From an uncultured bacterium (GTDB lineage: Bacteria; Omnitrophota; Omnitrophia; Omnitrophales; Abzuiibacteriaceae): a DNA stretch of 64,000 bases. Below are positions 2,292 to 21,420 of the stretch, in pieces (the first letter of the stretch is position 1; every line of letters begins with the position of its first letter). Below the pieces are notes generated by a model. It searched no databases. It saw nothing but the letters and a program-made list of their open reading frames with translations, and was not told the DNA's origin. Both the position numbers and the translations under genes were made by a program. Location of the stretch: the NCBI GenBank assembly GCA_964387845.1, contig CAYLXA010000002.1, forward strand, positions 96,001 through 160,000, written 5' to 3'.

Positions 2292-3884
2292 ATGAGCAAC
2301 GAATCGAGCATTGATTTATTTGAATTTTATTTGCAGCGGTTTTTTATGATCGCGTATGCTCTTTTTATTTGCGTTCATTTTTATGTCATTGCTGCAAATC
2401 AATTCATAGGATCATCGGATTCCGCGATTTACGCATCAACCTTACGGAATTGGGTAGAGGGAAGGGGTTTTACGGTCGATTTTATCTCCCATTTTTTTAG
2501 AGCGTATCCTCAAATTAATCACGCGCAAGATCAATACCCCGTGTTTCCCGTTATTTTGTCCGCTCCGTTTTATATCTTGTTTGGAAAATCTGTTTTTGGA
2601 GCAAAGATTTTAAATCTGTTGTTCTACCACGGTATTTTATGGATTGGTTATTGGTTTTGGCTTAAGTGGTTTAACAAAAAAGTTGCGATTCTCTCGGCTT
2701 TGATCTACATGACCTGCGTCCCGGCTTGGCAATTATCGATTTACTGCATGGCTGATTTGGGGTCCTGCTTCTTCATTTTTTTATTCATTGCAACGCTCGT
2801 GAAATTGCGTGTTATGGAAGGTTTGCAGCGCTCTGATTTATTGACGCTTATTCTGTGCGGGCTGTTCGGTGGAATGGTTGTTTTATATAAAACAGTGAAC
2901 CATATCGTCTTGTTTGCACTCCTATCATTCGTTCTTTTCCAGCCTCACGGGAAACTGTCGGAACGATTTCGCGCAGTGTTTGCAATCGGCTTGATCGCAT
3001 TGTTGATCAACCTCCCGGATTACATTCGGAACTGGCAGCTTTTTGGCTCTCCAATTTTTTCTTACGCAAGCTCTATTGCAGTTGCTGAGAAAATGGATCC
3101 CGGGCCCAACGGCGCCTATCATATTTACTTTGATAAACCTTTATCGTTTCTGACCTTGATAACCGAATTCGGTTGGGCGCACCTCATAAAACTAACCTTG
3201 TATAATTTTGAACAGTTTTTTCTTGGTTTATTTATCAAAGGCAATTTATTGCATCCGCTGGTAATGATTGCAGGTATTTGGGGAATTGCGGCAGGGTGTT
3301 TGCGGGCGCGGCTCCGATGGCTGCTTGGGTGGTGGTTTTTTGTATTTGCGGTATTGATGTGTTTTGTGCAGAGTTATCAAGTTCGTTATTACGTTGCTTT
3401 TGCACCTTTTCTAGCCGGTGGCAGTGCTTATTTGATAGTTGAGCGAGTTCTGCCGGTATTTAAAAATATACGAGGCAAGTTGCTAGTGGTTGGAATTATC
3501 GGTATAATTTCTTCATTTTCATTAGTCTTGGGGATGCTTCCCGAGGTCTTTGGCGAAAAAAAGGCCGGGTTTCTGCGTTTGGCGAGCTGGATTGCGGCCA
3601 ACACTCCTCCGGAGGCAGTCTTGATTACAAGAAGCCCTTGGGAGGTTGGCTTTCACACAAAGCGCGGAACAGTGATTACCCCAAAAGGGAGTAAGAGAGA
3701 ATTTGATCAAATAATAGAAAGATATGGCGCTTCTTATTTTGTCATTGATGGGTACCGGGAGACTTATCATCAGATTCAAGATTTAAGACCGCTTTATTCC
3801 GGAGTTGAAATGCCTGGTTTTCAGAAAGTATTTGAGCAAAAGTGGCGTTCAAAGGAGGCCTATGTTTATAAAATCATCCATTAA
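2292..3884 (+). CDS. GT-C superfamily integral-membrane glycosyltransferase (ArnT/PMT_2-like)
   Basis: 530 aa, >10 predicted TM helices, aromatic-rich loops typical of polyprenyl-phosphate-sugar dependent GT-C enzymes; by-eye family assignment. Confidence 0.4.
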   Translation: MSNESSIDLFEFYLQRFFMIAYALFICVHFYVIAANQFIGSSDSAIYASTLRNWVEGRGFTVDFISHFFRAYPQINHAQDQYPVFPVILSAPFYILFGKSVFGAKILNLLFYHGILWIGYWFWLKWFNKKVAILSALIYMTCVPAWQLSIYCMADLGSCFFIFLFIATLVKLRVMEGLQRSDLLTLILCGLFGGMVVLYKTVNHIVLFALLSFVLFQPHGKLSERFRAVFAIGLIALLINLPDYIRNWQLFGSPIFSYASSIAVAEKMDPGPNGAYHIYFDKPLSFLTLITEFGWAHLIKLTLYNFEQFFLGLFIKGNLLHPLVMIAGIWGIAAGCLRARLRWLLGWWFFVFAVLMCFVQSYQVRYYVAFAPFLAGGSAYLIVERVLPVFKNIRGKLLVVGIIGIISSFSLVLGMLPEVFGEKKAGFLRLASWIAANTPPEAVLITRSPWEVGFHTKRGTVITPKGSKREFDQIIERYGASYFVIDGYRETYHQIQDLRPLYSGVEMPGFQKVFEQKWRSKEAYVYKIIH

Positions 3885-3905
3885 ATTAATCGGCAGGAGC
3901 TCGAA

Positions 3906-4589
3906 ATGAACTGGATGCATAGAATTATCCGCGGCATTGGTTTGCGTTTGCAGAATATTTTTATACTTCGAGATGCCAAGAGCGAAATTAATAAAAAGCA
4001 GTATTTAAAAGGCGGGGAGTATGACGCCTACATTCAGAATCAATTGACTCACACGATTGGTCTCCGAACCAAGGACGCGGCGTTCCGATATAATAAATTT
4101 ATTACAACATTTTTAGAAAAAGTACCCGGCGTTGATCGTTCGAGCAAAGTCCTGTGCGTCGGTTGCCGTAACGTGCATGAACTTGACGCTTTTAGAGACG
4201 CAGGGTTTAAAAATATAGTCGGGGTTGATTTATTTTCGACCAATCCTCAAATTTTAGTCATGGATATGCATGATTTGAAATTTGATAATGATTCTTTTGA
4301 TATTTTATACAGCGCGGCAACCTTTGAAAAAGCGTATGACCCTCAAAGAGTTGCGAATGAGTTTTTAAGAGTCGTCAAATCTTCCGGTTATATTATTTTG
4401 GAAGTGGGCGCGCACTACAAAACAGGCGAAGTAGATCGCCATGATTTCGAAAATCTCCCAAATCTTTACCAGTTTTTTAAATCGTCAATGGGCTCAATAT
4501 TTTACGAAGCAGACACGGAGGATAGTTTGGTGACTATTTTCCAAGTTCAAAAATCAACCGCAAAAAGTTTTAGCGACACCCACCCATAA
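3906..4589 (+). CDS. class I SAM-dependent methyltransferase
   Basis: Motif I-like VLCVGCRNVHELDAFRDAGF, acidic motif II VGVDLF; RBS AGGAG upstream. Confidence 0.5.
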   Translation: MNWMHRIIRGIGLRLQNIFILRDAKSEINKKQYLKGGEYDAYIQNQLTHTIGLRTKDAAFRYNKFITTFLEKVPGVDRSSKVLCVGCRNVHELDAFRDAGFKNIVGVDLFSTNPQILVMDMHDLKFDNDSFDILYSAATFEKAYDPQRVANEFLRVVKSSGYIILEVGAHYKTGEVDRHDFENLPNLYQFFKSSMGSIFYEADTEDSLVTIFQVQKSTAKSFSDTHP

Positions 4590-4607
4590 GCACGTCAAAT
4601 AGTTGAC

Positions 4608-6560
4608 ATGAATACACTTTTAATTCTTGATGATTTGGCGGAGCTTCTATCATCTAAAAATAAAACCATACAAAAGCTGCTTTCGGCGTACTTGCAGCAT
4701 TTGGCGCGTTCAGCCGATGGCGCGGCTGAGGAGTTGTTGCGTGACGGTGATACGGTTTTTGCGGCAGGTCCGCAGGAGGTTTTAAGCCGTGTCACAGGAC
4801 CTTGCGAAAAGCTGGATTACGGAATCTGGTTCGATACAATCCCGTTTGCGCGCGGCGGGGAGATTGCAGGAAAGATAGTGGAGCAGATTCGGGTTTCCGA
4901 AGAGCTTAAGTCGATCTGCCCGTTTCTGTATCGGAACACGATTTCAATTCCAAAAATCGCCGCGATGCGGCTGATCATTACATTCTGCTACCACGCGGTC
5001 AATAATTATCTTTTACTTGAAAGCATCATTCGAAAAAAGCAAATTCAGAAAATCGTGGTTTTGGGGTCTGGTGCTGAAATTGAAATTTTAGGAAAAGAAT
5101 TGTCAAAGAAGCATCGCTTACAGTTTCAAGTCATGCGCCCTCATGATGTAATTTTAAAATTAAAAGTTAGGTTTGCTGATTATCTTTTTTATCGAGACAG
5201 AAAACTTCATGCCCTTCAATCGTTTCAAAACTGCGACAGCTTGCCTAAGCAAGAAATCAAGAAGAGGAACCATAAAAAATTGATCGCCATGCTTCCGGCG
5301 CATTCCCTTCATTTTAAAATCATGGACTCGCTCATGGGCGCGCTTCGCCAATCGCGCAATTATGAGCCATGCGTGCTGCTTCAAGATGCTTTTGAGCCGT
5401 ATCAAGGGGCATTGAAAAATTCGGGAATAGCATTCCGATTTCTTCATGATTTTTCGAGCAGGGAACTTATGGGAAAATTTCAAAATTATTTTAAAAATCT
5501 CAAATCTGCTTGGAAGAAATTAAGAAATTCGGATACATTTAAATCTGCGTTTGACTGCGATGGGCTCAATTGGTTCGATATTCTGAGAGTCGAAATGGAG
5601 TGGTTTTTTAAATTCAGCTATGCTGAAACGCTGGTCTTGCAGGAGCGCTTACGAAAAGCGATGGCAGATGTGCCGATAGATTCCGTTTTTACTTTTAGCG
5701 ATTCACGGTTTTTTGAAGCGGGAGGTGCGGCAATTGCACGGGAGATGAAAAAGCCCTCGTTTTTATATTCTCCTAATTTTTTATACGATACAGACGGTAT
5801 TAACGACTACGATACGGCGGAATTTGTTTTGACCGTGGGCAATCAAATGAAAGATTATATTGCGGCGCGCGGCAAGGTGAATCCGAGTCAAATTTTCACC
5901 GTTGGCGATATCCGTTTTGACGGAAGCGAAAAATGGCGAAGCAGCGATCAGGCCGAGAAAACTCGTGTACAGCTTCAAATTCCATCGGACAAAAAGGTAT
6001 TTATTCTAACCTCGTTTTACACTTGCTTTGGCTATAATGCATACGACAAGAAACGCTTCTTTGAAATGATTCGAGATGCCGCCAAAGCCAATCCGGACGT
6101 TGCGATTGTGATCAAGGCACATCCGAACGAGAGCGAAGAAGTTCTGCGGCAATTTGTTAAAAGTTTGGGCATGAGTGATTTTCCGTTAACAAAAACAATG
6201 CCGCTTTATTCGCTGTTTGGAATATCCAGCGGGCTTATTTCGTTGACGTCTCTTGCGGCAGTCGAAGCCATGGCATTGGATTTACCGGTTATCATTGCGA
6301 CGCTGCCGGATCGAAATTACGATTACTATATCCCATTTCGCCAATCCGATTCGGCAGCGTATGCTGCAAGCGCCGAAGAGCTCTCCTTGATTTTTAGAAA
6401 ATTAATTGATGAATCGAACTACAAAAAAAATTTGTTGGAACGGCATCGACAATTTGTTTCGCGTTATGTGGACCGAGGCGGGCAGAGCGCCGGCCAACGG
6501 GTTATTCAGGTTCTAGATAAAATTGTGAATTCCGAACGTGAGAATTTGGGGCAGCTCTAA
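4608..6560 (+). CDS. TagF-like GT-B glycosyl/glycerophosphotransferase family protein with HP motif (possible CMP-nonulosonate transferase)
   Basis: C-terminal half resembles CDP-glycerol glycerophosphotransferase/capsule biosynthesis family (KVFILTSFYT..., VIKAHPNESEE HP motif); sits directly upstream of CMP-sugar synthetase gene. Confidence 0.4.
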   Translation: MNTLLILDDLAELLSSKNKTIQKLLSAYLQHLARSADGAAEELLRDGDTVFAAGPQEVLSRVTGPCEKLDYGIWFDTIPFARGGEIAGKIVEQIRVSEELKSICPFLYRNTISIPKIAAMRLIITFCYHAVNNYLLLESIIRKKQIQKIVVLGSGAEIEILGKELSKKHRLQFQVMRPHDVILKLKVRFADYLFYRDRKLHALQSFQNCDSLPKQEIKKRNHKKLIAMLPAHSLHFKIMDSLMGALRQSRNYEPCVLLQDAFEPYQGALKNSGIAFRFLHDFSSRELMGKFQNYFKNLKSAWKKLRNSDTFKSAFDCDGLNWFDILRVEMEWFFKFSYAETLVLQERLRKAMADVPIDSVFTFSDSRFFEAGGAAIAREMKKPSFLYSPNFLYDTDGINDYDTAEFVLTVGNQMKDYIAARGKVNPSQIFTVGDIRFDGSEKWRSSDQAEKTRVQLQIPSDKKVFILTSFYTCFGYNAYDKKRFFEMIRDAAKANPDVAIVIKAHPNESEEVLRQFVKSLGMSDFPLTKTMPLYSLFGISSGLISLTSLAAVEAMALDLPVIIATLPDRNYDYYIPFRQSDSAAYAASAEELSLIFRKLIDESNYKKNLLERHRQFVSRYVDRGGQSAGQRVIQVLDKIVNSERENLGQL

Positions 6561-6564
6561 TCAC

Positions 6565-7281
6565 ATGGCAAAAAAAATATTACTAACCATTGCTGCCCGC
6601 GGCGGTTCAAAAGGTGTTAAGAATAAAAACATTCGAATGCTTCACGGAAAGCCGTTGATTGCCCACACAATTCATGCTGCGTTGAAATGGGGAAAGGCAG
6701 ATCGTGTAGTGGTCAGCACTGACTCGGCTGCAATTGCACGAGCAGCGCGGAAATATGGCGCTGAAGTCCCGTTCTTGCGGCCCGCTGCGTTTGCTCGGGA
6801 TTCTTCCCCAAAATGGCATGCATTAAAGCATGTATTGGAACAATCTGAGAAATTCTTCAACGAACGCTATGATTTGGTGATTGACCTGGATGTAACGGCG
6901 CCAATTCGCAGCGGGCAGGATATTGATGTGTGTCTTCAAAAGTTTTTACGCTTCAAACCCAAAACGCTTTTCAGCGTAACGCTCGCCCATAAGAATCCGT
7001 ATTTTAATATGGTGGAAGAAACAAAAAATGGTCGCGTGCGGGTCTCAAAGAAGTTGAGGACAAGCATTGTCCGGCGTCAGGATGCGCCCAAGGTTTACGC
7101 AATCAATGGTTCGATTTATGTTTATTCGCGTAATTACCTGCTCAAGTCTAAAAATCCTATTGCGACGAGCGATGATTCAATTATTCACGTGATGGATGAA
7201 CTAAGCGGTATCGACATAGACCGTGAAATCGATTTCAAATTCGTTGAATTCTTAATTCGCGAAGGCATGGTAAAGTTTTGA
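6565..7281 (+). CDS. neuA: acylneuraminate cytidylyltransferase family (CMP-nonulosonic acid synthetase, NeuA/LegF/PseF-like)
   Basis: N-terminal ILLTIAARGGSKGVKNKN motif diagnostic of CMP-NeuAc/CMP-Kdo synthetase family; start chosen at MAKKILL (6565), just after upstream stop at 6560. Confidence 0.75.
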   Translation: MAKKILLTIAARGGSKGVKNKNIRMLHGKPLIAHTIHAALKWGKADRVVVSTDSAAIARAARKYGAEVPFLRPAAFARDSSPKWHALKHVLEQSEKFFNERYDLVIDLDVTAPIRSGQDIDVCLQKFLRFKPKTLFSVTLAHKNPYFNMVEETKNGRVRVSKKLRTSIVRRQDAPKVYAINGSIYVYSRNYLLKSKNPIATSDDSIIHVMDELSGIDIDREIDFKFVEFLIREGMVKF

Positions 7282-8150
7282 AAACCACTCGCATTATTCC
7301 TCGCCTCGATATTAAAGGCCCTAACCTGGTGAAGGGAATTCACCTTGAGGGCTTACGTGTTCTTGGTAAGCCTGAAAAATTTGCTCGCTATTACTACGAA
7401 ACAGGTGCTGACGAACTTCTCTACATGGATGTTGTTGCTAGTCTGTATGGGCGAAATAGTTTGCTCGATATTATTTCCAAAACTTCAAAAGAGATTTTTA
7501 TTCCGTTAACGGTTGGCGGCGGCCTCAGATCTTTGGTTGATATGCAGGCTGTTCTTCATGCGGGTGCTGATAAGGTCGCGATCAATACTGCCGCAACGCA
7601 AAACCCGGAGATTATTCGCGAAGCCTCTAAACGCTTCGGATCTTCAACCATTGTCGTCTCGATTGAGGCCATTAAGCAACCCGACGGCACTTATCATGCT
7701 TTCATCGACAACGGACGTCAGGAAACCGGCTTGGATGTGTTCGATTGGGTTCAAAAAGTTGTCGAGTTGGGTGCTGGTGAAATTTTGCTGACCTCTGTCA
7801 ATCAAGAGGGAACGGGAAAGGGTTACGATCTTGACCTCATCAAAAAAGTTTCCGAAATGATTCCGATTCCCGTGATTGCTTGCGGCGGAGCGAAAAATAA
7901 ATCCGATGTGGCGAAAGTAATTATGGAAGGATGTGCGGATGCTGTGAGCGCTGCATCGATCTTTCATTATCATTATATTCGTGAAAACAGGTCAACCTCA
8001 GATTTTGAAACCGAAGGCAACGTTGAATTCTTAAAAAGCGGCAAGGGATTCAGCCAGTTTGACACAGTGACAGTTCGCGATGTTAAAAAGCATTTAACAG
8101 ATTTAGGGATCGAATGTCGTTATGAAAAAGGTTTGGTGGAACATGGCTAA
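7278..8150 (+). CDS. hisF: HisF-like cyclase subunit paralogue (WbuZ-type, polysaccharide amidotransferase system)
   Basis: Strong HisF similarity (RIIPRLDIKG, TVGGGLRS, GADKVAINTAA, GAGEILLTSVNQEGT, IACGGAKN); located in sugar cluster next to HisH paralogue and PP-loop amidotransferase, not in a his operon. Confidence 0.8.
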   Translation: MKTTRIIPRLDIKGPNLVKGIHLEGLRVLGKPEKFARYYYETGADELLYMDVVASLYGRNSLLDIISKTSKEIFIPLTVGGGLRSLVDMQAVLHAGADKVAINTAATQNPEIIREASKRFGSSTIVVSIEAIKQPDGTYHAFIDNGRQETGLDVFDWVQKVVELGAGEILLTSVNQEGTGKGYDLDLIKKVSEMIPIPVIACGGAKNKSDVAKVIMEGCADAVSAASIFHYHYIRENRSTSDFETEGNVEFLKSGKGFSQFDTVTVRDVKKHLTDLGIECRYEKGLVEHG

Positions 8151-8817
8151 ATCCAAACCGCGAGTCGCTATTGTCAATTACGGCATGGGAAATCTGTTCA
8201 GCGTGCAGCAAACCTGTGCTCATGTTGGCCTTGAAGCCGTGGTTACAAACCAAAAAAGGGATCTCCAAACGGCTGACGGAATCATTTTGCCTGGCGTTGG
8301 GGCATTTGGAGATGCTATGGACAACCTAAACCGTTTAGATATTACAGAAACCCTCCAGAAGGCCATTTTATCTGAAAAAAAGCCTTTTCTAGGGGTCTGC
8401 CTGGGCCTGCAATTACTTATGGAGGAAAGTGAGGAATTTGGGTATCATAGAGGCCTTGGTGTAGTCAAGGGGAAGGTAATTCGCTTTGGCGATCAGATAA
8501 AGGGCAGGGATGGCAGGGCAGCGAAAGTCCCTCAAGTCGGTTGGAATCAGATATATCCTACGCCAAGCGGAAGTGAATGGAGCCAGTCGCTTTTGTCCGG
8601 AGTTTCAGAGGGCGATTTCATGTATTTTGTGCATTCATACCACATTGAGCCAGAAGATAGAGGCGTTCGTTTGTCAATGACGCGCTATGGTAATTTTGAA
8701 TTTTGCTCCAGTGTACAGAAGGGAAATATCTTTGGCTGTCAGTTTCATCCGGAACGAAGCGGTGCCAAGGGCGTTACGGTTTACCAAAATTTTTTGAAAT
8801 TATTTTCTAAATCTTAG
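8143..8817 (+). CDS. hisH: HisH-like class I glutamine amidotransferase paralogue (WbuY-type)
   Basis: RVAIVNYGMGNLFSV, GVCLGLQLL (Cys nucleophile), FHPERSG; start set at MAKSKPRVAIV overlapping hisF-like by 8 nt. Confidence 0.8.
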   Translation: MAKSKPRVAIVNYGMGNLFSVQQTCAHVGLEAVVTNQKRDLQTADGIILPGVGAFGDAMDNLNRLDITETLQKAILSEKKPFLGVCLGLQLLMEESEEFGYHRGLGVVKGKVIRFGDQIKGRDGRAAKVPQVGWNQIYPTPSGSEWSQSLLSGVSEGDFMYFVHSYHIEPEDRGVRLSMTRYGNFEFCSSVQKGNIFGCQFHPERSGAKGVTVYQNFLKLFSKS

Positions 8818-8825
8818 GAGCAATA

Positions 8826-9659
8826 ATGAGTGTACTTTCAGCAAGTGTTTCATTAATGCGGCGATTTACTTTATCGCTTCCCAAACCCATTTCAAACCAT
8901 GCCGCAAAAGCATACGAAAAGATTGGATCAACATTCATTGGGCTTTCAGATCAAATGAATTTTGTTCAAAGCGCATCGGGAATACGAAATGATACAGAAT
9001 CTTTTCGACGTGATCTGTTGTGCAAGTTTAACCGTATTCAAAATAATATGATCTGCGCACATCAACCAAATGAGCTTCTCATATTGTCAGACACGATTTT
9101 AAAACTCTCAATTCCCGGCGATATTGTAGAGCTGGGTTGTTATAAAGGAGGTTCATCTGCCAAATTAAGCTGGATAGCGGCGACTACGGGTCGAAAATTG
9201 TATGTTTGCGATTCATTCGAGGGGTTGCCACAGCCTAACGAGCACGATCAATTCCACAAATCGCTCATTGGGCGAGATAAGCATTACAATCAGGGAGATT
9301 ATTGTGGTCAGCTAGACGAAGTAAAGGATAATATTAACCGTTATGGCAGCATGGCGTCTTGCGAATTTATAAAAGGTTTTTTCTCAAATTCGTTAAAAGA
9401 TCTAAAAGTAAAACCAGCACTCATTTTTATGGATGTGGACCTTATTGATTCAGCGCGTGATTGCCTCATTCATTTATGGAATAAGCTGGAAAAGGGCGGA
9501 AAATATTTTACTCACGAAGCCACGATGTTAAATTTTATAACTGAACTTACGAATCATGATTGGTGGCAAAGAAATTTTGGGCATCCAGCTCCTATTCTAA
9601 TGGGAGTCGGATTTGGCATGTCAGATCAAGCAAAAAATCTTGCTTTTTTCCAAAAATAA
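8826..9659 (+). CDS. TylF/MycF-family class I SAM-dependent (O- or N-)methyltransferase
   Basis: VELGCYKGGSSAKLS glycine-rich SAM motif, DSFEGLP, FMDVDL; family typical of sugar methyltransferases. Confidence 0.5.
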   Translation: MSVLSASVSLMRRFTLSLPKPISNHAAKAYEKIGSTFIGLSDQMNFVQSASGIRNDTESFRRDLLCKFNRIQNNMICAHQPNELLILSDTILKLSIPGDIVELGCYKGGSSAKLSWIAATTGRKLYVCDSFEGLPQPNEHDQFHKSLIGRDKHYNQGDYCGQLDEVKDNINRYGSMASCEFIKGFFSNSLKDLKVKPALIFMDVDLIDSARDCLIHLWNKLEKGGKYFTHEATMLNFITELTNHDWWQRNFGHPAPILMGVGFGMSDQAKNLAFFQK

Positions 9660-9661
9660 TT

Positions 9662-10495
9662 ATGACCAAAACAATGCCATCGATAATGATAAATTTAAAT
9701 AAAAAAGCATTGCTCGATATCGCTGAGCAAAAACACCATGAATATGTGACTGCAAGTCCGTTCCCGCATATAGTGATTGATGATTTTCTTCCTCCAGATA
9801 TTTTAGATGTTGTTTTAGAAGAATTTCCAAACCCAGGCGATCCTGTTTGGCTTCAGCATGTTCACGCGAATAGTAAAAAAATGGCATGTAACGATGTTGA
9901 TAAAATGGGACAAATCACTCAACAACTTTTTTATCAATTTAATTCTGCGCTTATCATTGAGTTTCTAGAGAAGCTAACCGGCATTTCGGGACTAATTCCA
10001 GACACAAATTTTACAGGTGGAGGACTTCATTGTATTGGAGAAGGGGGATTTCTAAAAATCCATGCGGATTTTAATTTTCATGAAAAATTAAAATTAGACC
10101 GACGTCTCAATCTACTTGTTTACCTCAACAAAAATTGGAAAGAAGATTACGGCGGCCATTTGGAATTATGGGACAAGAAAATGACTCATAGCGTTAAAAA
10201 AATTCTCCCCATTTTTAATCGTTGTGTTGTATTTGATACCACCGATTTTTCGTTTCATGGCCATCCCGATCCTTTGCAATGCCCTAATAACGTCTATCGA
10301 AAGTCATTAGCTCTCTATTATTATTCCAATGGACGTCCCCTGGAAGAGAAGTCAGATTCGCACTCTACTCTCTATCAGGCGCGGCCACATGAAATTCGGA
10401 TGAAGCACGTTGTTAAAAAGCTATTACCTCCGATTATTTTTGATTTTCTTGTGGATGCAAAAACAAATTTAAAGAAAAAATCTAAAAAAGCATGA
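9662..10495 (+). CDS. 2OG-Fe(II) oxygenase superfamily protein
   Basis: HADFNFH...H motif (HxD...H facial triad pattern: IHADFN, HGHPDP), family commonly found in LPS/glycan loci; start at MTKTMPS (9662). Confidence 0.45.
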   Translation: MTKTMPSIMINLNKKALLDIAEQKHHEYVTASPFPHIVIDDFLPPDILDVVLEEFPNPGDPVWLQHVHANSKKMACNDVDKMGQITQQLFYQFNSALIIEFLEKLTGISGLIPDTNFTGGGLHCIGEGGFLKIHADFNFHEKLKLDRRLNLLVYLNKNWKEDYGGHLELWDKKMTHSVKKILPIFNRCVVFDTTDFSFHGHPDPLQCPNNVYRKSLALYYYSNGRPLEEKSDSHSTLYQARPHEIRMKHVVKKLLPPIIFDFLVDAKTNLKKKSKKA

Positions 10496-10499
10496 AGCT

Positions 10500-11723
10500 A
10501 TGACGCAATCTGAAACTCAAAATAAATTTAAAACCAAGTACGGTTTGCCGTCAGAAGTAATTTTCTGCAAGCGTTGCGTCATGTCAAACCAGCGGCCCGC
10601 TTCAAGTAAAGAATTCAAGCATACCAAATCTCAAAAACACACAACGCTTAATATTCCAAACGATGGTATCTGCGATGCGTGCCGTTACGCGGATAAAAAA
10701 GAAGAAATCAATTGGAAAAGCCGAGAAGCCGAACTTTTGAAACTGCTCGACCGCCACCGCAAAACGGACGGAACTTACGATTGCATTGTTCCTGGAAGCG
10801 GCGGAAAAGACAGTGTTTATGCAGCGCACTTGCTCAAATACAAATACGGTATGCATCCTTTGACGGTCACTTGGCCGCCAATTCTTTACACCGATATTGG
10901 TTACGCGAATTTTAGAAATTGGCTCTACAAAGGCGGTTTCGATAACATTTCGTTTAATTACAACGCCAAAGTTCATGCACTATTAACAAGACTCGCCATC
11001 GAAAACCTTCTTCATCCTTTTCAACCTTTTATTCTTGGACAAAAAAACCTCGCGCCCAAGCTCGCTTTAAAATATGAAGTGCCTTTGATTTTCTACGGTG
11101 AAAGTGAAGCAGAATATGGAAATCCGCTTGCAGAGACCGCAACCTCGCTCCGCGATAAATCTTATTTCACGATGGAAAATCTTTCCGATATTCATTTGGG
11201 CGGCGTAAGCGTGAAAGAACTTCAGGAAAAATACAAACTCACAATCAACGACATTATGACTTATTTGCCGCCGACGGCATCCGAGGTCGCCAAAATGAAT
11301 ATGGAAGTTCATTACCTTGGTTATTATTTAAAATGGACACCGCAGGAAGCCTATTATTACTCGGTTGAAAATGTGGGTTTTCAGGCAAATCCATTCCGCA
11401 CCGAAGGCACTTACAGCAAATACAACAGTTTGGATGATAAAATAGACGGCTTCCACTATTACACCACTTTCATTAAATTTGGCTTAGGTCGCGCAAGTTA
11501 CGATGCATCACAAGAAATTCGCAACAAACATTTGACGCGGGAAGAAGGTATAGCGCTTGTCCGCAAGTTTGACGGGGAGTTTCCTCAAAAATATTTTCAG
11601 GAAATCATGGACTATATCGGCATGAAGCCCGATCATTTTCTGGATCTTTGCGACCAATTCCGGTCTCCGCATTTATGGAAAAAAGAAAATGGGAAGTGGA
11701 TCTTGCGCTATCCGGTCAATTAA
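10500..11723 (+). CDS. N-acetyl sugar amidotransferase (PP-loop ATP pyrophosphatase, WbuX/PseA-type)
   Basis: PP-loop SGGKDS within CIVPGSGGKDSVYAAHLL; N-terminal Cys cluster CKRCVMSN...CDACRY; genomic pairing with hisH/hisF paralogues as in WbuXYZ systems. Confidence 0.75.
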   Translation: MTQSETQNKFKTKYGLPSEVIFCKRCVMSNQRPASSKEFKHTKSQKHTTLNIPNDGICDACRYADKKEEINWKSREAELLKLLDRHRKTDGTYDCIVPGSGGKDSVYAAHLLKYKYGMHPLTVTWPPILYTDIGYANFRNWLYKGGFDNISFNYNAKVHALLTRLAIENLLHPFQPFILGQKNLAPKLALKYEVPLIFYGESEAEYGNPLAETATSLRDKSYFTMENLSDIHLGGVSVKELQEKYKLTINDIMTYLPPTASEVAKMNMEVHYLGYYLKWTPQEAYYYSVENVGFQANPFRTEGTYSKYNSLDDKIDGFHYYTTFIKFGLGRASYDASQEIRNKHLTREEGIALVRKFDGEFPQKYFQEIMDYIGMKPDHFLDLCDQFRSPHLWKKENGKWILRYPVN

Positions 11724-11747
11724 GCCGGTATTTACCGAGCGATTTTT

Positions 11748-13547
11748 ATGACACAGCCGCAAGCAATCAAATACAGCTCTCTGCTTTATTTTATATTGCA
11801 GTATAAAAAAAATTTTTTTGTTTTATTAACTGCAACTCTCGCCGTATCATTTTTTGAAATTTGTCAATTGGCCGCAATGCTGCCAATTTTGAACCGTTTA
11901 ATTCCTGCCACGTCACCCAACGTGCCTGTGCCCGGGTTAAAATTTTTTGAAGGTGCCATTGCAATGGCTCCCTTCAAAGAAACACTAATCTCGGCCGTGG
12001 CTGTGTTTGCTGTTGTTGTGATTGTGCGTTTTTTTATTGTATTCACCGCCGAGCTTTTAAATCATCGAACAACCCAGGAAATCATCTATCAAACAAAAAG
12101 AAAAATTCTCAAAAAAACCTTGGCATCCAAGTACCAATTTTTCCTCGACAGTAAGCACGGAGACCTTTTTTTTATTTGCATTACGGCGCCCGAGAATGCC
12201 GGCGCTTATTTGTCTATTTTCGTTTCAGCTGTGATTTACTTTTTTACCACCATTGCAATTCTAGGGTTTTTGCTATCGATCAATTTTGTTGTCACTTGTT
12301 CCATTATTTTACTCGGGCTTTTGTATTATTTAGGTACGCGGAAGATTTCCGTGCGCGTTTCGTATGTAGGTGGCCAAAAAAGGATCGGTTTGATCAAAGA
12401 ACAACATGGTCTGATTCAAGAATCTCTGCAAGGCATTAAATACATCATTACTTATGGAAAACAGGAGCCTTTGCAGCGAGTGTTTGACCGATCAAGCCGT
12501 GCATTTTGCGATCAAGTCCATCGAGACACTTTCTGGCAGACTCTATTGCAAAAAGTACCAGAGCCAGCACTTTTACTTCTCGCTTCTTCAGGCATCATTC
12601 TGTTGGTAACGTCTATCGGTCAACAAGCCGTCGGAAGTTATCTCAACATCATCGGCGTTTACTTTTTTGCAATCCAAAGAATTATTCCCGCCTTAAATAA
12701 ATTCAGCACCTCTGCTTTTCAAGTGCTGGCCGGCATGCCCAACTTAGAGGCGTGTCAGAATTTTTTGGAAGCTCCTATTGAAAAACAGGCTGACGGCAGC
12801 ATCGCCGTTGATCAGCTTAAGGATGCGATCAGATTTGAGAATGTCAGTTTGACATATCCAAACGGTAAGCATGTCTTGAAAAGTGTGAGTATGATTTTTA
12901 GGAAGGGGAAAACAACCGCAATTGTCGGGGAATCCGGATCCGGTAAGACTTCGGTGGTTAATTTAATTTTGGGCCTGCACCATGCGAGTAACGGCTCTAT
13001 CCTCATTGACGAACATTCGCTGAGCGATGTCAGAATGAGTACTTTGCTGAGCAAAATCGGCTATGTTGGGCAGGAGACATTTCTACTCCACGCCAGCGTT
13101 AAAGATAACATTGCTTTTTACGATCAGTACTCGGATGAAAAAATCATGGAAGCTGCCAAAATGGCGGACGCGGCTGAATTTATCGAAGAACTGCCAGATC
13201 GATATGACACCATTGTGGGGTCCGGAGGTATGAAGCTTTCGGGCGGCCAGCGTCAACGGCTTGCGATTGCGCGCGCATTGTTGCGGCGGCCGGAGATTTT
13301 AGTGTTAGATGAGGCAACCAGTAACTTGGATAGCATTTCAGAAGGCGTTGTGCAGCAAACCATCAATCACATTGCTCAGTATTATACGGTTATTGTCGTT
13401 GCGCACAAATTATCAACGGTGAAAAGTGCCGATCAGATCTACGTACTGCACGATGGTCAAATAGCAGAATCCGGTACGCATGAAGCATTGATGGAAAGAC
13501 GCGGAAAATATTACCAGCTGCATTTTATTTCCAGCGGTTCTGATTAA
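11748..13547 (+). CDS. ABC exporter, fused permease/ATPase (MsbA-like)
   Basis: 6 N-terminal TM helices; Walker A GESGSGKTS, signature LSGGQRQRLAIARAL, Walker B ILVLDEATSNLD. Confidence 0.85.
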   Translation: MTQPQAIKYSSLLYFILQYKKNFFVLLTATLAVSFFEICQLAAMLPILNRLIPATSPNVPVPGLKFFEGAIAMAPFKETLISAVAVFAVVVIVRFFIVFTAELLNHRTTQEIIYQTKRKILKKTLASKYQFFLDSKHGDLFFICITAPENAGAYLSIFVSAVIYFFTTIAILGFLLSINFVVTCSIILLGLLYYLGTRKISVRVSYVGGQKRIGLIKEQHGLIQESLQGIKYIITYGKQEPLQRVFDRSSRAFCDQVHRDTFWQTLLQKVPEPALLLLASSGIILLVTSIGQQAVGSYLNIIGVYFFAIQRIIPALNKFSTSAFQVLAGMPNLEACQNFLEAPIEKQADGSIAVDQLKDAIRFENVSLTYPNGKHVLKSVSMIFRKGKTTAIVGESGSGKTSVVNLILGLHHASNGSILIDEHSLSDVRMSTLLSKIGYVGQETFLLHASVKDNIAFYDQYSDEKIMEAAKMADAAEFIEELPDRYDTIVGSGGMKLSGGQRQRLAIARALLRRPEILVLDEATSNLDSISEGVVQQTINHIAQYYTVIVVAHKLSTVKSADQIYVLHDGQIAESGTHEALMERRGKYYQLHFISSGSD

Positions 13548-13550
13548 GCT

Positions 13551-14693
13551 ATGAAGTCCGTTTTATTTATCAAGCCGCCGATGCGGTACGGTAAGTTTTA
13601 TTTTCGGATCGCGCAATACATCGAGTATTTCAAGAAAAATGATTGGGAAATTAACGTTTTATATCCGGCTCCGGACGGCGCGACACTGGTTCAAAAGCTT
13701 TCAGCGGCGGACATTTTTTATAAAGCATGTCATTTGCTGGCGCAATTTCCAAAGTTTTTGGTAGATCTGGCAAAGTGCGACCTGGTTATTGTATTTCCTT
13801 CGCCCACGATGGTACTTTATGCGGTTTGGGTTGGCTTGTTTCAGAAAAAAATGCTAATTGAACACACGGTTTCTTACATCTCTCACCGGGATGTGTGGCC
13901 TTGGTATCCTGTTTGGCTGGACAGGTTGCTATATCGGCAGTCAGCCGCGGTCATGACTCATACCGAAAGTATGCGCGAAAGCTTGGTGAAGCAGTTTAAG
14001 CTTCCTGGCCGTCAAGTTGTTGCGTCGTACTGTAATGTGGATCTGGAGAAATTTTCTCCCCGATACGATAATGAGGTTTTGTCGTTAAAGAAAAAGTTAG
14101 GCATTCTTTCGAAGAAAGTAGTGTTTTATCATGGGCTGATGCATGAGTGGCATGGCGTGGACTTGATTTTAGAGGCGGCAAATCGAGTATCCCAAAAACA
14201 TTCGGATGTTGTATTCGTGTTCATGACAGGCGTATCGGATATTTTTAACGGATTACCGGATTATATTTTGCATCTAAACGAACGCGATTACTATACGTGG
14301 GAAACGTTGCCGGTTTTTATTCAATTGGCGGATATTTGGGTTAGTGGATTTCGAAATGTTCAGCGCGGCGATCAAACGTTTGGATCTACTTTAATTCAGG
14401 CGCTGGCCATGGGTCGAACCGTTATTACATCCGACAGCCCGGAAAAAAGAAAATTCTTAAGAAATCAAGAAAATGCATTGCTGGTAAAGTCCGAATCCGC
14501 TTCGGCGATCGAGGAAGGTATTTTGTATTGCTTGAGTCATGAATCAGAGAGTAAAAGACTGGGCGCCGAAGCCAGAAAGATAGCGGAGCGTTCTTTCTCG
14601 ATTCAAGCACTCGAGGAAAAGCTTGATCAACTGAGCGCGCATAATTCCGACCGTGCAATTAAAGAATCGCAGCAGAAAGTTTTTGCGCCATGA
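13551..14693 (+). CDS. glycosyltransferase family 4 (GT-B, retaining)
   Basis: Glycos_transf_1-like C-terminal domain (VFYHGLMHEWHGVDL, GRTVITSDSPE). Confidence 0.6.
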   Translation: MKSVLFIKPPMRYGKFYFRIAQYIEYFKKNDWEINVLYPAPDGATLVQKLSAADIFYKACHLLAQFPKFLVDLAKCDLVIVFPSPTMVLYAVWVGLFQKKMLIEHTVSYISHRDVWPWYPVWLDRLLYRQSAAVMTHTESMRESLVKQFKLPGRQVVASYCNVDLEKFSPRYDNEVLSLKKKLGILSKKVVFYHGLMHEWHGVDLILEAANRVSQKHSDVVFVFMTGVSDIFNGLPDYILHLNERDYYTWETLPVFIQLADIWVSGFRNVQRGDQTFGSTLIQALAMGRTVITSDSPEKRKFLRNQENALLVKSESASAIEEGILYCLSHESESKRLGAEARKIAERSFSIQALEEKLDQLSAHNSDRAIKESQQKVFAP

Positions 14694-15355
14694 AACCGGC
14701 AATGGATTCATTGTCATATACTTTCCGAAGGCGGTTGTTGGATAATTCTTTAAATCGCCACTGTGCTCATTTGGAAGAGCCGGTCGTTGAGATTGGGAAC
14801 GGCACCCGCGACCGGCGCGGGCGGTATCAACCGCGGCAATCTAAATGGTTTGTTGTTGATATCGAAAATAGCAAACGCCCTAATTTGCTCGCTGATGGAG
14901 AGCAGCTGCCGTTTCACGACCAATCAGTAGCAACCGTAGTTGCGCTTGAAGTTTTAGAACATGTAAAAAGGCCCGAGCATTTCTTAAAAGAAATTCACAG
15001 GGCGTTAAAACCAAACGGAGAATTTCTTTTAAGCATGCCTTTTTTGTACCGATATCACGCGGCTCCTCATGATTTTCAGCGGTATACGGAACCTAAATTG
15101 AGAACGATTCTGGCGGAATCCGGTTTTTCGATTGAGCAACTTGAATATCACGGATTTTATTTTACGGTGATGAGCGAGCAGATTAAATCGCTGCTGGCTA
15201 GAATTGCACCCAAGTGGTTGCGGCAGTTGTTGGGCATTATGGTGTTGCCGTTTTTATGGTTTCTTGTTTTTCTTGATCGCACATCATGGGTTGCAAAATC
15301 TGATTTTTTGACGAGTTATACAACAGGTTTTTTTGTCGTAGCACGCAAAGCCTAG
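14690..15355 (+). CDS. class I SAM-dependent methyltransferase (Methyltransf_11-like)
   Basis: LKPNGEFLLSMPF motif; ATGA overlap with upstream gene. Confidence 0.5.
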   Translation: MKPAMDSLSYTFRRRLLDNSLNRHCAHLEEPVVEIGNGTRDRRGRYQPRQSKWFVVDIENSKRPNLLADGEQLPFHDQSVATVVALEVLEHVKRPEHFLKEIHRALKPNGEFLLSMPFLYRYHAAPHDFQRYTEPKLRTILAESGFSIEQLEYHGFYFTVMSEQIKSLLARIAPKWLRQLLGIMVLPFLWFLVFLDRTSWVAKSDFLTSYTTGFFVVARKA

Positions 15356-15368
15356 AACGGAGAAACAA

Positions 15369-16379
15369 ATGAATCTTAAAGGCAAAAGAGTTCTGGTTAC
15401 CGGAGCCGATGGTTTTATCGGTTCTCATTTGACCGAAGCGCTGGTGAGGCGTGGATGTAACGTACGCGCGTTCGTATTTTACAATTCGTTCAATTCATGG
15501 GGCTGGCTGGATGAGTCGCCAAAGGATATCAGAAAGTCTTTGGACGTGGTTGCTGGAGATGTCCGCGATCCGCACGGTGTCCGAGAAGCCGTAAAGGGAT
15601 GTGACGTTGTCATGCACCTGGCAGCGCTTATTTCAATTCCGTTTTCGTATCATTCGCCGGATGCTTTTGTTGATACAAACATAAAGGGGACTCTCAACGT
15701 GTTGCAGGCATCTCGAGATTCAAAAGTAAGCAAAATTATTCATACCTCCACGAGCGAAGTTTACGGAACCGCGCAGTTTGTGCCCATTACGGAAGAGCAC
15801 CCATTGCAGGGCCAATCACCCTATTCGGCCTCAAAAATTGGGGCTGATCAGATGGCTACGGCTTTTCACTCAGCGTTCCAAACACCGGTTTGTATTTTTC
15901 GGCCGTTCAATACATATGGTCCAAGGCAGTCAGCGCGCGCGGTTATTCCTTCTATTATTATTCAAATCGCAACGGGAAAGAGTGAGATCAAGCTTGGATC
16001 TGTCCATCCAACTCGAGATTTTACCTATGTATCCGACACGGTCGAAGGTTTTATCAAAGCCGCGGAATCAGAAAAGTCGGTTGGCGAGGTGATTAACGGG
16101 GGTAGTAATTTTGAGATCTCAATTTCGGATACCGTAAAATTGATTAGCAAAATCTTAAACCGAAAAATTGCGGTCATAAGCGATAATCAAAGAATTCGCC
16201 CGAAAGCAAGCGAGGTGGAGCGATTGTGGGCTGACAATAAGAAGGCAAAAAAACTACTTAACTGGAAGCCTGCGCATAGCGGTTTAGAAGGTTTTGAAAA
16301 GGGGCTAAGAAAAACCGTGGACTGGATCTCGCAAGCGGATATTTTAAAGCGATACAAAGAAGAGATTTATAACATTTAA
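15369..16379 (+). CDS. NAD-dependent sugar-nucleotide 4,6-dehydratase/epimerase, extended SDR (LegB/PseB/RmlB-like)
   Basis: Rossmann VLVTGADGFIGSHL, catalytic YSASK (SPYSASKIGADQ); RBS GGAGA. Confidence 0.8.
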   Translation: MNLKGKRVLVTGADGFIGSHLTEALVRRGCNVRAFVFYNSFNSWGWLDESPKDIRKSLDVVAGDVRDPHGVREAVKGCDVVMHLAALISIPFSYHSPDAFVDTNIKGTLNVLQASRDSKVSKIIHTSTSEVYGTAQFVPITEEHPLQGQSPYSASKIGADQMATAFHSAFQTPVCIFRPFNTYGPRQSARAVIPSIIIQIATGKSEIKLGSVHPTRDFTYVSDTVEGFIKAAESEKSVGEVINGGSNFEISISDTVKLISKILNRKIAVISDNQRIRPKASEVERLWADNKKAKKLLNWKPAHSGLEGFEKGLRKTVDWISQADILKRYKEEIYNI

Positions 16380-16381
16380 CA

Positions 16382-17557
16382 ATGAAGCGAATAAAATCCA
16401 ACATAGACGCCACAAGTGTTCTGAAGGCTGTTAGGAAGTGCTTGCCCGGGGACAGTCGCCCCATCCAACTTCACGAGCCCTGGTTTGCCGGCAACGAGCA
16501 GAAGTATGTCAGTGCGTGCATTAAGAGCGGGATTGTTTCATCGATCGGGCCTTATGTTGAACAGTTTGAGAAACAATTGATCCGATTGACAGGCTCAAAA
16601 TTTGCAATTGCCACGATCAACGGAACAGCTGGGCTTCATACGGCACTCCGAATGGCCGGAGTAGAGGCAAATGATGAGGTTTTAGTGCCGTCATTGTCAT
16701 TCGTTGCAACATCAAATGCGATCGCGTATTGCGGCGCTATTCCTCATTTTATTGACAGTGAGATGCGGGCGCTTGGCGTTGATCCGCACAAGCTTCAGGA
16801 TTATTTGGTAAAAATATCCAAACGGCGAAATAGCGGCTTCATCAATAAAACAACAGGCCGGAGAATAAGAGCGGCGGTTGTGGTGCATACATTCGGCCAC
16901 CCGGCGGATCTTGACGCTATCCAGGCAGTTTGCAAAAAATTTAAACTTCCACTAATTGAAGATGCTGCAGAATCGATCGGATCCTATTACAAAGGGAAGC
17001 ACACCGGTACAATCGGAGACTTTGGTGTTTTAAGCTTTAACGGCAACAAAACAATCACGTCAGGCGGCGGAGGCGCGATTTTAGTACAGAATCAAAAACT
17101 GGCAAAACATCTCCGGCACATTACAACCACCGCTAAAATACCTCATGCTTGGCGTTATTATCATGATGAAATCGGATATAATTATCGGCTTCCCAATCTA
17201 AACGCTGCGCTTGGCTGTGCGCAATTGGAGTCGCTGCCGATGTTTATCAAGCGCAAACGGGCCTTAGCCAAACGTTACGAGAAGGCTTTCTCCCATATTA
17301 ATGGAGTTAGTTTTATTAAGGAACCTCCTTTTGCAAAAAGCAACTACTGGCTAAATGCTGTCAGGCTGGAAGGTGTTGGATTGCGGGAAAGAGATCGGTT
17401 TTTAACGCTTATGCACACGCACAACATTAAAACAAGGCCGGTGTGGACACTGACGCATCGTCTTCCTATGTATCGAAATTGCCCGCGAATGGATATGTCC
17501 GTATCAGAGAAAATTGAAAAAGAAACTATTAACCTGCCCAGCAGCCCAGCGTTATGA
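16382..17557 (+). CDS. DegT/DnrJ/EryC1/StrS-family PLP-dependent sugar aminotransferase (LegC/PseC-like)
   Basis: Family-typical segments GDEVLVPSLSFVATSNAI, FGVLSFNGNKTITSGGGGAIL (PLP-lysine region). Confidence 0.8.
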   Translation: MKRIKSNIDATSVLKAVRKCLPGDSRPIQLHEPWFAGNEQKYVSACIKSGIVSSIGPYVEQFEKQLIRLTGSKFAIATINGTAGLHTALRMAGVEANDEVLVPSLSFVATSNAIAYCGAIPHFIDSEMRALGVDPHKLQDYLVKISKRRNSGFINKTTGRRIRAAVVVHTFGHPADLDAIQAVCKKFKLPLIEDAAESIGSYYKGKHTGTIGDFGVLSFNGNKTITSGGGGAILVQNQKLAKHLRHITTTAKIPHAWRYYHDEIGYNYRLPNLNAALGCAQLESLPMFIKRKRALAKRYEKAFSHINGVSFIKEPPFAKSNYWLNAVRLEGVGLRERDRFLTLMHTHNIKTRPVWTLTHRLPMYRNCPRMDMSVSEKIEKETINLPSSPAL

Positions 17558-19737: not shown

Positions 19738-19746
19738 AGACGCGTC

Positions 19747-20340: not shown

Positions 20341-20350
20341 GGAGTTTGTT

Positions 20351-21397: not shown

Positions 21398-21420
21398 GCC
21401 GTCGTGGCTCCTCAAGATTT

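Follow-up and report, generated by a model that had tools for sequence, protein, structure and literature searches.

A predicted acetamidino-forming system in a legionaminic acid locus of an uncultured Omnitrophales bacterium appears to be interrupted by a methyltransferase–oxygenase cassette

We analyzed a 64-kb stretch of contig CAYLXA010000002.1 from an uncultured bacterium of the Omnitrophales; this stretch is referred to as the window, and the coordinates of its features are positions within it. Six genes at 6565–11723 sit inside a surface-glycan locus of ~29 kb. They encode, in order, a cytidylyltransferase for nonulosonates activated with cytidine 5′-monophosphate (CMP), a HisF-like protein, a HisH glutaminase, a TylF-family methyltransferase dependent on S-adenosylmethionine (SAM), a 2-oxoglutarate (2OG)-Fe(II) oxygenase, and an N-acetyl sugar amidotransferase (NASAT) (Table 1). 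Four of these genes, together with a pathway for legionaminic acid (Leg) downstream, likely produce an acetamidino form of Leg, and the methyltransferase and oxygenase genes have the properties of a cassette inserted among them. The six-gene arrangement, including the CMP-sugar synthetase, was first proposed from inspection of the letters alone (the sequence-only reading); all six genes were found on the plus strand, and family searches agreed with their assignments. The genes are tightly packed, with a gap or overlap of no more than 8 nt at each junction, the hisF/hisH overlap excepted. The TTG start of the hisF-like gene overlaps the stop codon of the cytidylyltransferase. The start of hisH is ambiguous (8122 or 8143), and 8143 appears likelier, as the resulting 8-nt overlap with hisF also occurs in a related locus (L088). 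Three starts (9662, 9674, and 9686) are possible for the oxygenase gene.

Table 1. Coordinates and family assignments of the six genes and of neighboring genes of the surface-glycan locus
Feature	Positions	Strand	Family evidence
CMP-nonulosonate cytidylyltransferase, LegF/NeuA-like	6565–7281	+	PF02348 (CTP_transf_3) 70.2 bits
HisF-like (β/α)8 barrel, WbuZ-like	7278–8150	+	PF00977 (His_biosynth) 214 bits
HisH class-I glutaminase, WbuY-like	8143–8817 (open reading frame open from 8122)	+	TIGR01855 209.1 bits, cut-off 105.4
TylF/MycF/NovP-family SAM-dependent methyltransferase	8826–9659	+	PF05711 80.5 bits, gathering score 23
2OG-Fe(II) oxygenase	9662–10495	+	PF13640 (2OG-FeII_Oxy_3) 70.2 bits, gathering score 27; PF13661 43 bits
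PP-loop NASAT, PtmG/LpNASAT type	10500–11723	+	TIGR03573 (WbuX) 347.4 bits
650-aa protein directly upstream of the cytidylyltransferase	4608–6560	+	sub-threshold matches
MsbA/PglK-like ABC exporter	11748–13547	+	PF00005; sub-threshold HepA-family, MsbA, and PglK models
LegB, NAD-dependent 4,6-dehydratase	15369–16379	+	TIGR04180 521.9 bits, cut-off 475
LegC-family aminotransferase	16382–17557	+	TIGR04181 524 bits, cut-off 420
NeuC–NeuB fusion, 727 aa	17554–19737	+	TIGR03568 434 bits (cut-off 236), TIGR03569 461 bits (cut-off 400)
NeuD/PglD-type N-acetyltransferase, LegH-like	19747–20340	+	TIGR03570 181 bits, cut-off 161
CBS-domain sugar-1-phosphate nucleotidyltransferase, PtmE-like	20351–21397	+	nucleotidyltransferase models, aa 123–341

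The last of the six genes was the most readily assigned. Its product exceeded the TIGR03573 cut-off of 203.2 bits, covered profile positions 2–342 of 344, and aligned over 398 aa with the NASAT of Legionella pneumophila (PDB 8WEX) at 59% identity (E = 9e-162). The NASAT family is defined by an SGGXDS PP-loop and a zinc-binding CXXCXn[GN]XCXXC motif (PMC10607449). Both are present in the window protein: the PP-loop, SGGKDS, is invariant in the NASAT alignment and occupies residues 100–105 (nt 10797–10814), and the tetracysteine motif consists of C23-K-R-C26 (nt 10566–10577) and G56-I-C58-D-A-C61 (nt 10671–10682). These features mark the window protein as a bona fide N-acetyl sugar amidotransferase, predicted to convert an acetamido group to an acetamidino group at the expense of ATP and ammonia. 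The L. pneumophila enzyme (LpNASAT) has a segment of ~15 residues between its cysteine pairs that is missing in other NASATs (PMC10607449). The window protein, 8WEX, and the NASATs of three related loci (L087–L089) share this segment, and with Leg genes nearby it assigns the window protein to the LpNASAT-type, Leg-associated subgroup. The NASATs of L087–L089 also carry both family motifs. The enzyme type appears to be common and highly conserved, because at least 8,000 homologues were found and the best 120 of them are 71–77% identical to the window NASAT, with named sources among these best matches that include Margulisiibacteriota, Scalindua, Armatimonadetes, Smithellaceae, and a Thermoplasmata archaeon.

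One of the related loci, L089 (GCA_044225175.1), has two NASAT paralogues (5995–7191 and 10001–11209 of that locus) within the same nonulosonate cluster. One is of the LpNASAT type, carries the insert, and is 76% identical to the window protein; the second is generic, has no insert, and is 50% identical. The two paralogues could perform two different amidinations.

The genes for the HisF-like protein, HisH, and NASAT are contiguous in all five of the other NASAT loci with which we compared the window (L087, L088, L089, L170, and L171). These are loci of close relatives for which gene context was available; all five are nonulosonate clusters, and a CTP_transf_3 gene accompanies the trio in each. 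L170 holds the closest NASAT relative with context (77% identity). The window HisH has its catalytic cysteine in the sequence GVCLGLQ and a His-Pro-Glu motif at residues 202–204, and it is 50–54% identical to the hisH products of L087–L089. Among NCBIfam models, the HisF-like protein scored best against WbuZ (TIGR03572; 274.4 bits, cut-off 299.7), then hisF (TIGR00735; 267.5 bits, cut-off 294.55) and AglZ/HisF2 (NF038364; 207.1 bits, cut-off 310). Because the equivalog cut-offs were missed, we describe the protein as WbuZ-like and do not file it as an equivalog. It retains D11, the ammonia-gate residues R5, E46, K99, and E167, and the phosphate-binding glycines and Ala-Ser, but the cyclase residue corresponding to D130 of Thermotoga maritima HisF is glutamate (VVSIEA). 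Identity is 61–66% to the NASAT-linked copies of L087–L089 and 45–51% to genuine HisF. The window protein and these copies share the D130→E and C9→R substitutions and an insert of ~30 aa before the last helix, none of which occurs in genuine HisF.

Because the trio is contiguous in five other loci and the HisF-like protein has signatures absent from real HisF, we assign both proteins, on homology and gene context, as NASAT partners and not as enzymes of histidine biosynthesis. The alternative is a true imidazole glycerol phosphate synthase that has come to lie in a glycan locus by chance. HisH does pass the histidine model by a wide margin (209 bits against 105), the HisF-like protein scores almost equally with hisF and WbuZ, and the residues listed above are conserved; however, both HisF-type models fell below cut-off, the glutamate at D130 and the ~30-aa insert are common only to NASAT-linked copies, and the trio recurs in unrelated lineages. 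Family searches across the 64-kb window identified no other his gene, and the HisF-like protein, which lacks D130 and histidine-gene context in the window, does not qualify as a bona fide HisF. The alternative is barely credible, and we rejected it on the grounds of the sub-cut-off HisF models and the signatures of NASAT-linked HisF-like proteins. Glutamate at D130, arginine at C9, and the ~30-residue C-terminal insert separate NASAT-linked HisF paralogues from HisF of the histidine pathway. Such markers have practical value: the TIGR01855 model does not split WbuY-type from histidine-pathway HisH, the Prokaryotic Genome Annotation Pipeline (PGAP) names the Rhizobium copy (L171) “HisH,” and automated pipelines still name NASAT partner proteins as histidine enzymes. 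In L087 (8423–9985), the HisF-like protein and HisH are fused as a 520-aa protein encoded directly upstream of the NASAT gene, which independently supports the view that the two proteins form a physical complex in the NASAT system.

A complete Leg gene set begins 3.6 kb downstream of the NASAT gene. LegB, LegC, an N-acetyltransferase, a 2-epimerase, a synthase, and a cytidylyltransferase are all present, the hydrolyzing 2-epimerase (NeuC/LegG-like, aa 3–365) and the nonulosonate synthase (NeuB/LegI-like, aa 391–725) being parts of one 727-aa protein. The cytidylyltransferase of the six-gene stretch gave 131 bits against the PseF model, under its cut-off of 205.7. The gene set predicts Leg as the pathway product, with the stereochemistry (Leg or an epimer) likewise a prediction. 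Since a complete Leg pathway lies adjacent, 5-acetamidino Leg is a reasonable product of the trio, and the operon likely makes the acetamidino form of this sugar. The trio might instead amidinate another N-acetyl sugar such as a hexosamine, as WbuX does with N-acetylfucosamine (FucNAc) and WbpG with the diacetamido-mannuronate ManNAc3NAcA. TIGR03573 is a “subfamily” model that spans enzymes with different substrates, pocket residues differ among NASAT homologues (PMC10607449), and the locus encodes many glycosyltransferases whose donor sugars are unassigned. Against this, no gene of a FucNAc or diacetamido-mannuronate pathway was recognized in the locus, the shared insert places the enzyme in the LpNASAT-type subgroup, and in each of the six loci compared NASAT lies amid genes for NeuB, NeuC, a CMP-synthetase, and PtmE-like proteins. 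We therefore regard a substrate other than Leg as very unlikely.

Characterized systems offer several points of comparison. In Campylobacter jejuni, PtmG converts CMP-Leg5Ac7Ac to CMP-Leg5Am7Ac, and a ptmG homologue in the lipopolysaccharide locus of L. pneumophila, ORF 28 (lpg0748), is credited with making CMP-Leg5Am7Ac (PMC3766260). The window NASAT shares SGGKDS, the tetracysteine zinc motif, and the 15-residue insert with the Legionella enzyme 8WEX, and the NASAT gene lies in a Leg-producing surface-glycan locus in both organisms (PMC3766260). The two differ in that the window gene is split from hisH by two foreign genes and its product lacks the 17-residue C-terminal insertion of LpNASAT. 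PtmG (Cj1324) and PseA of C. jejuni and Campylobacter coli are likewise NASAT-family enzymes that act on CMP-nonulosonates, and there the PtmH methyltransferase further N-methylates the amidine (PMC3766260, PMC13317340). The Campylobacter genes belong to a flagellin glycosylation island, whereas the window has a polysaccharide-type locus and no flagellin gene. WbuX/WbuY/WbuZ of Escherichia coli O145 and WbpG of Pseudomonas aeruginosa O5 follow the same logic of a TIGR03573 NASAT with HisH-like and HisF-like partners (PMC10607449), but their substrates are hexosamine derivatives (L-FucNAc and ManNAc3NAcA) and not a nonulosonate, and the window HisF-like protein falls short of the WbuZ equivalog cut-off (274 versus 300 bits).

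A match in gene content is L171, from the plasmid of Rhizobium sp. WL3 (NZ_CP042825.1, 603.8–615.2 kb), for which we used the PGAP annotation. Its run of genes comprises LegB, LegC, NeuC, NeuB, an acetyltransferase, a nucleotidyltransferase, a Gfo/Idh/MocA protein, a cytidylyltransferase, a short-chain dehydrogenase/reductase, NASAT, WbuZ, and HisH, followed by an ABC transporter. In contrast to the window, NASAT-WbuZ-HisH is uninterrupted and NeuC and NeuB are separate; DNA identity is ~65% over short stretches. The amidino module is thus already annotated in public genomes and is of a well-known kind. The window adds a lineage to the many that carry machinery for Leg5Am7Ac, a result that is useful for annotation but unsurprising. 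As a side observation, NeuC and NeuB are also separate adjacent genes in L087, L088, and L089, unlike the fusion in the window.

In WbuXYZ-type systems, ammonia from HisH is generally assumed to travel through the HisF-like conduit to NASAT, which forms the amidine. Applied to the window, this scheme would have HisH hydrolyze glutamine and release ammonia, which would pass through the HisF-like barrel to NASAT. With its zinc site and PP-loop, NASAT would activate the N-acetyl carbonyl with ATP, yielding AMP and pyrophosphate, and exchange the oxygen for NH. CMP-Leg5Ac7Ac, supplied by LegB, LegC, LegH, LegG–I, LegF, and the PtmE-like enzyme, would become CMP-Leg5Am7Ac, and this would enter a surface glycan assembled by the neighboring glycosyltransferases, ABC exporter, Wzy_C protein, and initiating phosphotransferase. 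We infer the substrate, the channeling, and the ATP step from homology. Part of the sequence-only reading is borne out by these results. It had described a WbuXYZ-like trio, identified the PP-loop protein as an N-acetyl sugar amidotransferase, placed the hisF- and hisH-like genes outside any histidine operon, and named a 5-acetamidino Leg as the likely sugar, all of which agree with the contiguous trio and HisF-like signatures, the TIGR03573 score and likeness to 8WEX, the searches of the window for his genes, and the adjacent Leg pathway. Its statement that both genes have full catalytic motifs holds for the Cys and His-Pro-Glu of HisH; for the HisF-like protein it fails at D130, though the D11, gate, and phosphate residues are kept.

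The two genes that separate hisH from the NASAT gene belong to families of their own. The methyltransferase falls in the TylF family on the basis of its PF05711 score, its SAM-binding glycine motif, and its conserved acidic positions; its motifs read ELGCYKGG, DSFEG, and DVD. Residues D129, D203, and D205 are invariant in 29 homologues and, from alignment to 5I10, would be metal ligands. Matches to the PDB were weak (best E-value 2.7e-14, 56 bits), and the best solved relatives are the metal-dependent sugar O-methyltransferases 5I10, 4CDZ, MycF, and NovP; none is an N-methyltransferase. At the glycine motif, DSF(E/Q)G, and DxD the window sequence aligns with TylF, MycF, and NovP, but these methylate deoxysugars on macrolides and aminocoumarins, whereas the window enzyme is encoded in a surface-glycan locus and paired with an oxygenase.

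The oxygenase belongs to the 2OG-Fe(II) superfamily, as judged from its PF13640 score, HxD...H triad, 2OG-binding arginine, and predicted double-stranded β-helix. The motif of the window enzyme reads HAD...H(G)H...R, and H134-x-D136, H199/H201, and R213 are invariant across 30 homologues. An AlphaFold model (predicted local distance difference test score 87, predicted template modeling score 0.82) had its closest folds in Tpa1, OGFOD1, and PHD2, with PolD and PasI at similar scores. The modeled fold is therefore best called prolyl-hydroxylase-like, with the reservation that protein hydroxylases and sugar-nucleoside oxygenases score alike. The window protein shares the double-stranded β-helix and iron triad with all of these, but at 15–21% identity and query template modeling scores of 0.5–0.6 their substrates are not transferable to it. 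Unlike them, it belongs to a separate and very large family of ~275-aa proteins from polysaccharide loci, with at least 7,998 homologues and 55–63% identity across cyanobacteria, Streptomyces, and candidate phyla. A literature search for a characterized 2OG oxygenase in polysaccharide or nonulosonate clusters returned nothing relevant.

To place the pair in context we collected 160 loci that encode TylF homologues, half of them (80) from GTDB species representatives and the other 80 from metagenomes, and searched their fetched flanks by tblastn with the window proteins. NASAT, HisF, and HisH were found near the TylF homologue in 0 of the 160 loci, whereas a 2OG oxygenase homologue lay within 1.5 kb in 16. 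Each of the four closest TylF relatives for which context was available (P0139, P0138, L007, and L090; 47–51% identity) has the oxygenase gene as its neighbor; P0139 and P0138 show a 4-nt overlap between the pair, and the surrounding genes there are unrelated to nonulosonates. Conversely, nothing is inserted between hisH and NASAT in the five other NASAT loci, the Rhizobium order NASAT-WbuZ-HisH included. Five oxygenase contexts, among them those of Planktothrix, Streptomyces, GCA_053500235.1, and an Allocoleopsis plasmid, proved to be polysaccharide loci of the Wzx/Wzy type that encode glycosyltransferases or sulfotransferases but lack nonulosonate genes, and oxygenase homologues that are 59–61% identical sit in Wzx/Wzy loci that have neither NASAT nor Leg genes. 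Composition also sets the pair apart. The G+C content at third codon positions (GC3) is 0.335 for the methyltransferase (z = −4.0) and 0.302 for the oxygenase (z = −4.9), compared with 0.479 ± 0.036 (standard deviation; minimum 0.404) for the other 50 open reading frames (ORFs) of the window.

The contiguity of the trio elsewhere, the 0/160 and 16/160 counts, the linkage in all four closest relatives, and the GC3 values together argue that the TylF–2OG pair forms a tailoring cassette in its own right, which came to lie between hisH and the NASAT gene by insertion. The locus would then consist of a standard three-protein amidotransferase that makes CMP-Leg5Am7Ac and a cassette of separate origin, a reading to which we assign a probability of about 0.75. 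The interleaving reflects insertion of the cassette and is not evidence of a functional link to the amidine; the cassette is not part of the amidino-forming machinery. Its junctions, of 8 and 4 nt, leave no room for repeats, and no repeat search was made. No conserved third partner of the cassette was found in the compared loci. The window enzyme resembles unpaired oxygenases as closely as paired ones, so the methyltransferase looks like an optional add-on.

The sequence-only reading had assigned the two enzymes to further decoration of the acetamidino-Leg. In its most specific form, this proposal holds that the TylF protein would act like PtmH and N-methylate the 5-acetamidino group, and that the oxygenase would hydroxylate the same Leg, giving a multiply decorated nonulosonate. 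Both genes are indeed embedded in the operon, flanked by hisH and the NASAT gene; high-carbon sugar nucleosides are the substrates of PolD and PasI, whose 2OG fold is shared by the oxygenase; and PtmH of C. jejuni and ORF 8 of L. pneumophila do N-methylate Leg5Am7Ac (PMC3766260). The counts reported above (no NASAT, HisF, or HisH in any TylF-homologue locus and no such insert in the five other NASAT loci), the foreign composition, and the distribution of the 2OG family across phyla in loci without nonulosonate genes all point the other way, as does the fact that solved TylF members are metal-dependent sugar O-methyltransferases. In addition, two further class-I methyltransferases in the locus (3906–4589 and 14690–15355) are equally available as N-methyltransferases, and N-methylation of the amidine would be better sought first in these. 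We therefore consider this proposal unlikely, and the same holds for any action of the cassette on Leg itself.

With the pair taken as an inserted cassette, the likeliest chemistry is that the oxygenase would hydroxylate a carbon of a sugar or glycan and the methyltransferase would then O-methylate a hydroxyl. A precedent for this combination is found in cephamycin biosynthesis, where the 2OG hydroxylase and methyltransferase CmcJ/CmcI install a methoxy group. As in that system, an adjacent oxygenase and SAM-dependent methyltransferase could turn C-H into C-OCH3, but the substrate class differs and the likeness is an analogy only. That such a methoxy group is placed on the acetamidino-Leg, for example at the 9-methyl or an N-acyl methyl, by hydroxylation of C-H and O-methylation of the new hydroxyl, is quite improbable; if it were true, the product would be an undescribed hydroxylated or methoxylated Leg5Am derivative. 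Similarly doubtful is the possibility that the cassette acts on a non-glycan substrate, for example by prolyl hydroxylation of a protein, and is a mere passenger in the operon. The closest folds are those of the ribosomal and hypoxia-inducible factor prolyl hydroxylases Tpa1, OGFOD1, and PHD2, and some copies of the cassette have unrelated genes around them, as in L094 and in P0138, where ApbE and carboxylase genes adjoin. However, polysaccharide loci (Wzx, Wzy, glycosyltransferase, sulfotransferase, YfhO, and GtrA) make up most of the contexts that we inspected for the two families, and characterized TylF members methylate sugar hydroxyls.

Several points weigh against an amidotransferase for Leg joined by an unrelated cassette. 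The cassette is co-oriented and tightly packed in the operon, which makes its expression together with the Leg genes probable, and Leg could yet prove to be its substrate. PtmH (Cj1325/6) and the L. pneumophila ORF 8 are given in the literature as “putative methyltransferase,” with no Pfam family, which leaves a PtmH-like role for the TylF protein formally admissible. The comparison set for NASAT is a small sample (n = 5). The HisF-like protein misses the WbuZ and AglZ/HisF2 cut-offs, and the search for his genes was confined to the 64-kb window. The 8WEX protein (UniProt A0A3A6V1D8) and ORF 28/lpg0748 are treated as separate comparison points whose sameness is not assumed, and the placing of the amidine at N5 instead of N7 is taken from homology. 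What was observed directly is family membership, motifs, synteny, co-occurrence counts, and composition.

The foreign TylF–2OG cassette is the only unusual feature of the locus, and it represents a recurrent, uncharacterized gene pair. The pair of TylF protein and ~275-aa oxygenase is found in polysaccharide loci of many phyla, and we found no characterized function for it; its chemistry, once worked out, would explain a common unannotated glycan modification.

Within the collected loci, the TylF and ~275-aa oxygenase genes recur next to each other in either order, often with an overlap of 1–4 nt (P0139, P0138, L007, L048, L051, L066, L091, L094, L119, L124, and L157). The sources are Acidobacteriota, an actinobacterial lineage (Acidimicrobiia), several unclassified bacterial metagenome-assembled genomes, and metagenome contigs. 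Copies of TylF or of the cassette often lie near GT-C-type membrane proteins (YfhO- or PMT_2/ArnT-like), GT2 genes, or GtrA. Such GT-C-type neighbors were seen at L066 (8909–16171), P0139, P0151, and in the window itself (2292–3884), and they hint at a link to periplasmic glycan modification by way of polyprenyl-phosphate sugars.

The remainder of the surface-glycan locus encodes a GDSL-like protein, a large membrane protein, several methyltransferases, an ABC exporter, GT2 and GT4 glycosyltransferases, a Wzy_C protein, and an initiating polyprenyl-phosphate sugar phosphotransferase. The 650-aa protein encoded directly upstream of the cytidylyltransferase had sub-threshold matches to TIGR04396 (52 bits, cut-off 125), a BFO_1060 glycosyltransferase model (37.7 bits, cut-off 200), and Capsule_synth (22 bits); it is tentatively a candidate nonulosonate (Leg) transferase, and the related NASAT loci yielded no homologue of it. 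The ABC exporter encoded directly downstream of NASAT is a candidate flippase for a lipid-linked glycan. In the PtmE-like protein, a KpsF-like CBS stretch precedes the nucleotidyltransferase part, and L088 and L089 encode proteins with this CBS plus NTP_transferase arrangement. A promoter and terminator scan of positions 3–22 kb found terminator-like sites at chance level and none within the tiny intergenic gaps, a result that neither supports nor contradicts a single operon. Matches to σ70-like promoters at 3000–22000 numbered 53, against 34 ± 5 in shuffled sequence; most are intragenic, and AT-rich composition, not real promoters, probably accounts for the excess.

At the start of the locus, two overlapping ORFs (30–989 and 910–2016) may encode O-acetyl-handling enzymes. 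The first product is a GDSL/SGNH-like hydrolase (PF13472, 41 bits), and the second had no family match. A longer upstream gene (459 aa) is called on the L001 contig, so the window probably cuts into this gene. Further along, 22217–24412 encodes a 731-aa protein with two GT4-type glycosyltransferase halves, to which many models match in two separate stretches. Past ~29.5 kb the window contains housekeeping genes, namely a uracil-DNA glycosylase family gene, priA, fmt, gap, glgB, malQ, pgk, tpi, recG, plsX, fabH/F, and smc. Between glgB and malQ, 43078–45573 encodes an 831-aa GH57 plus DUF3536 protein that matched no NCBIfam model at E ≤ 1e-10 and probably belongs to a glycogen-metabolism operon.

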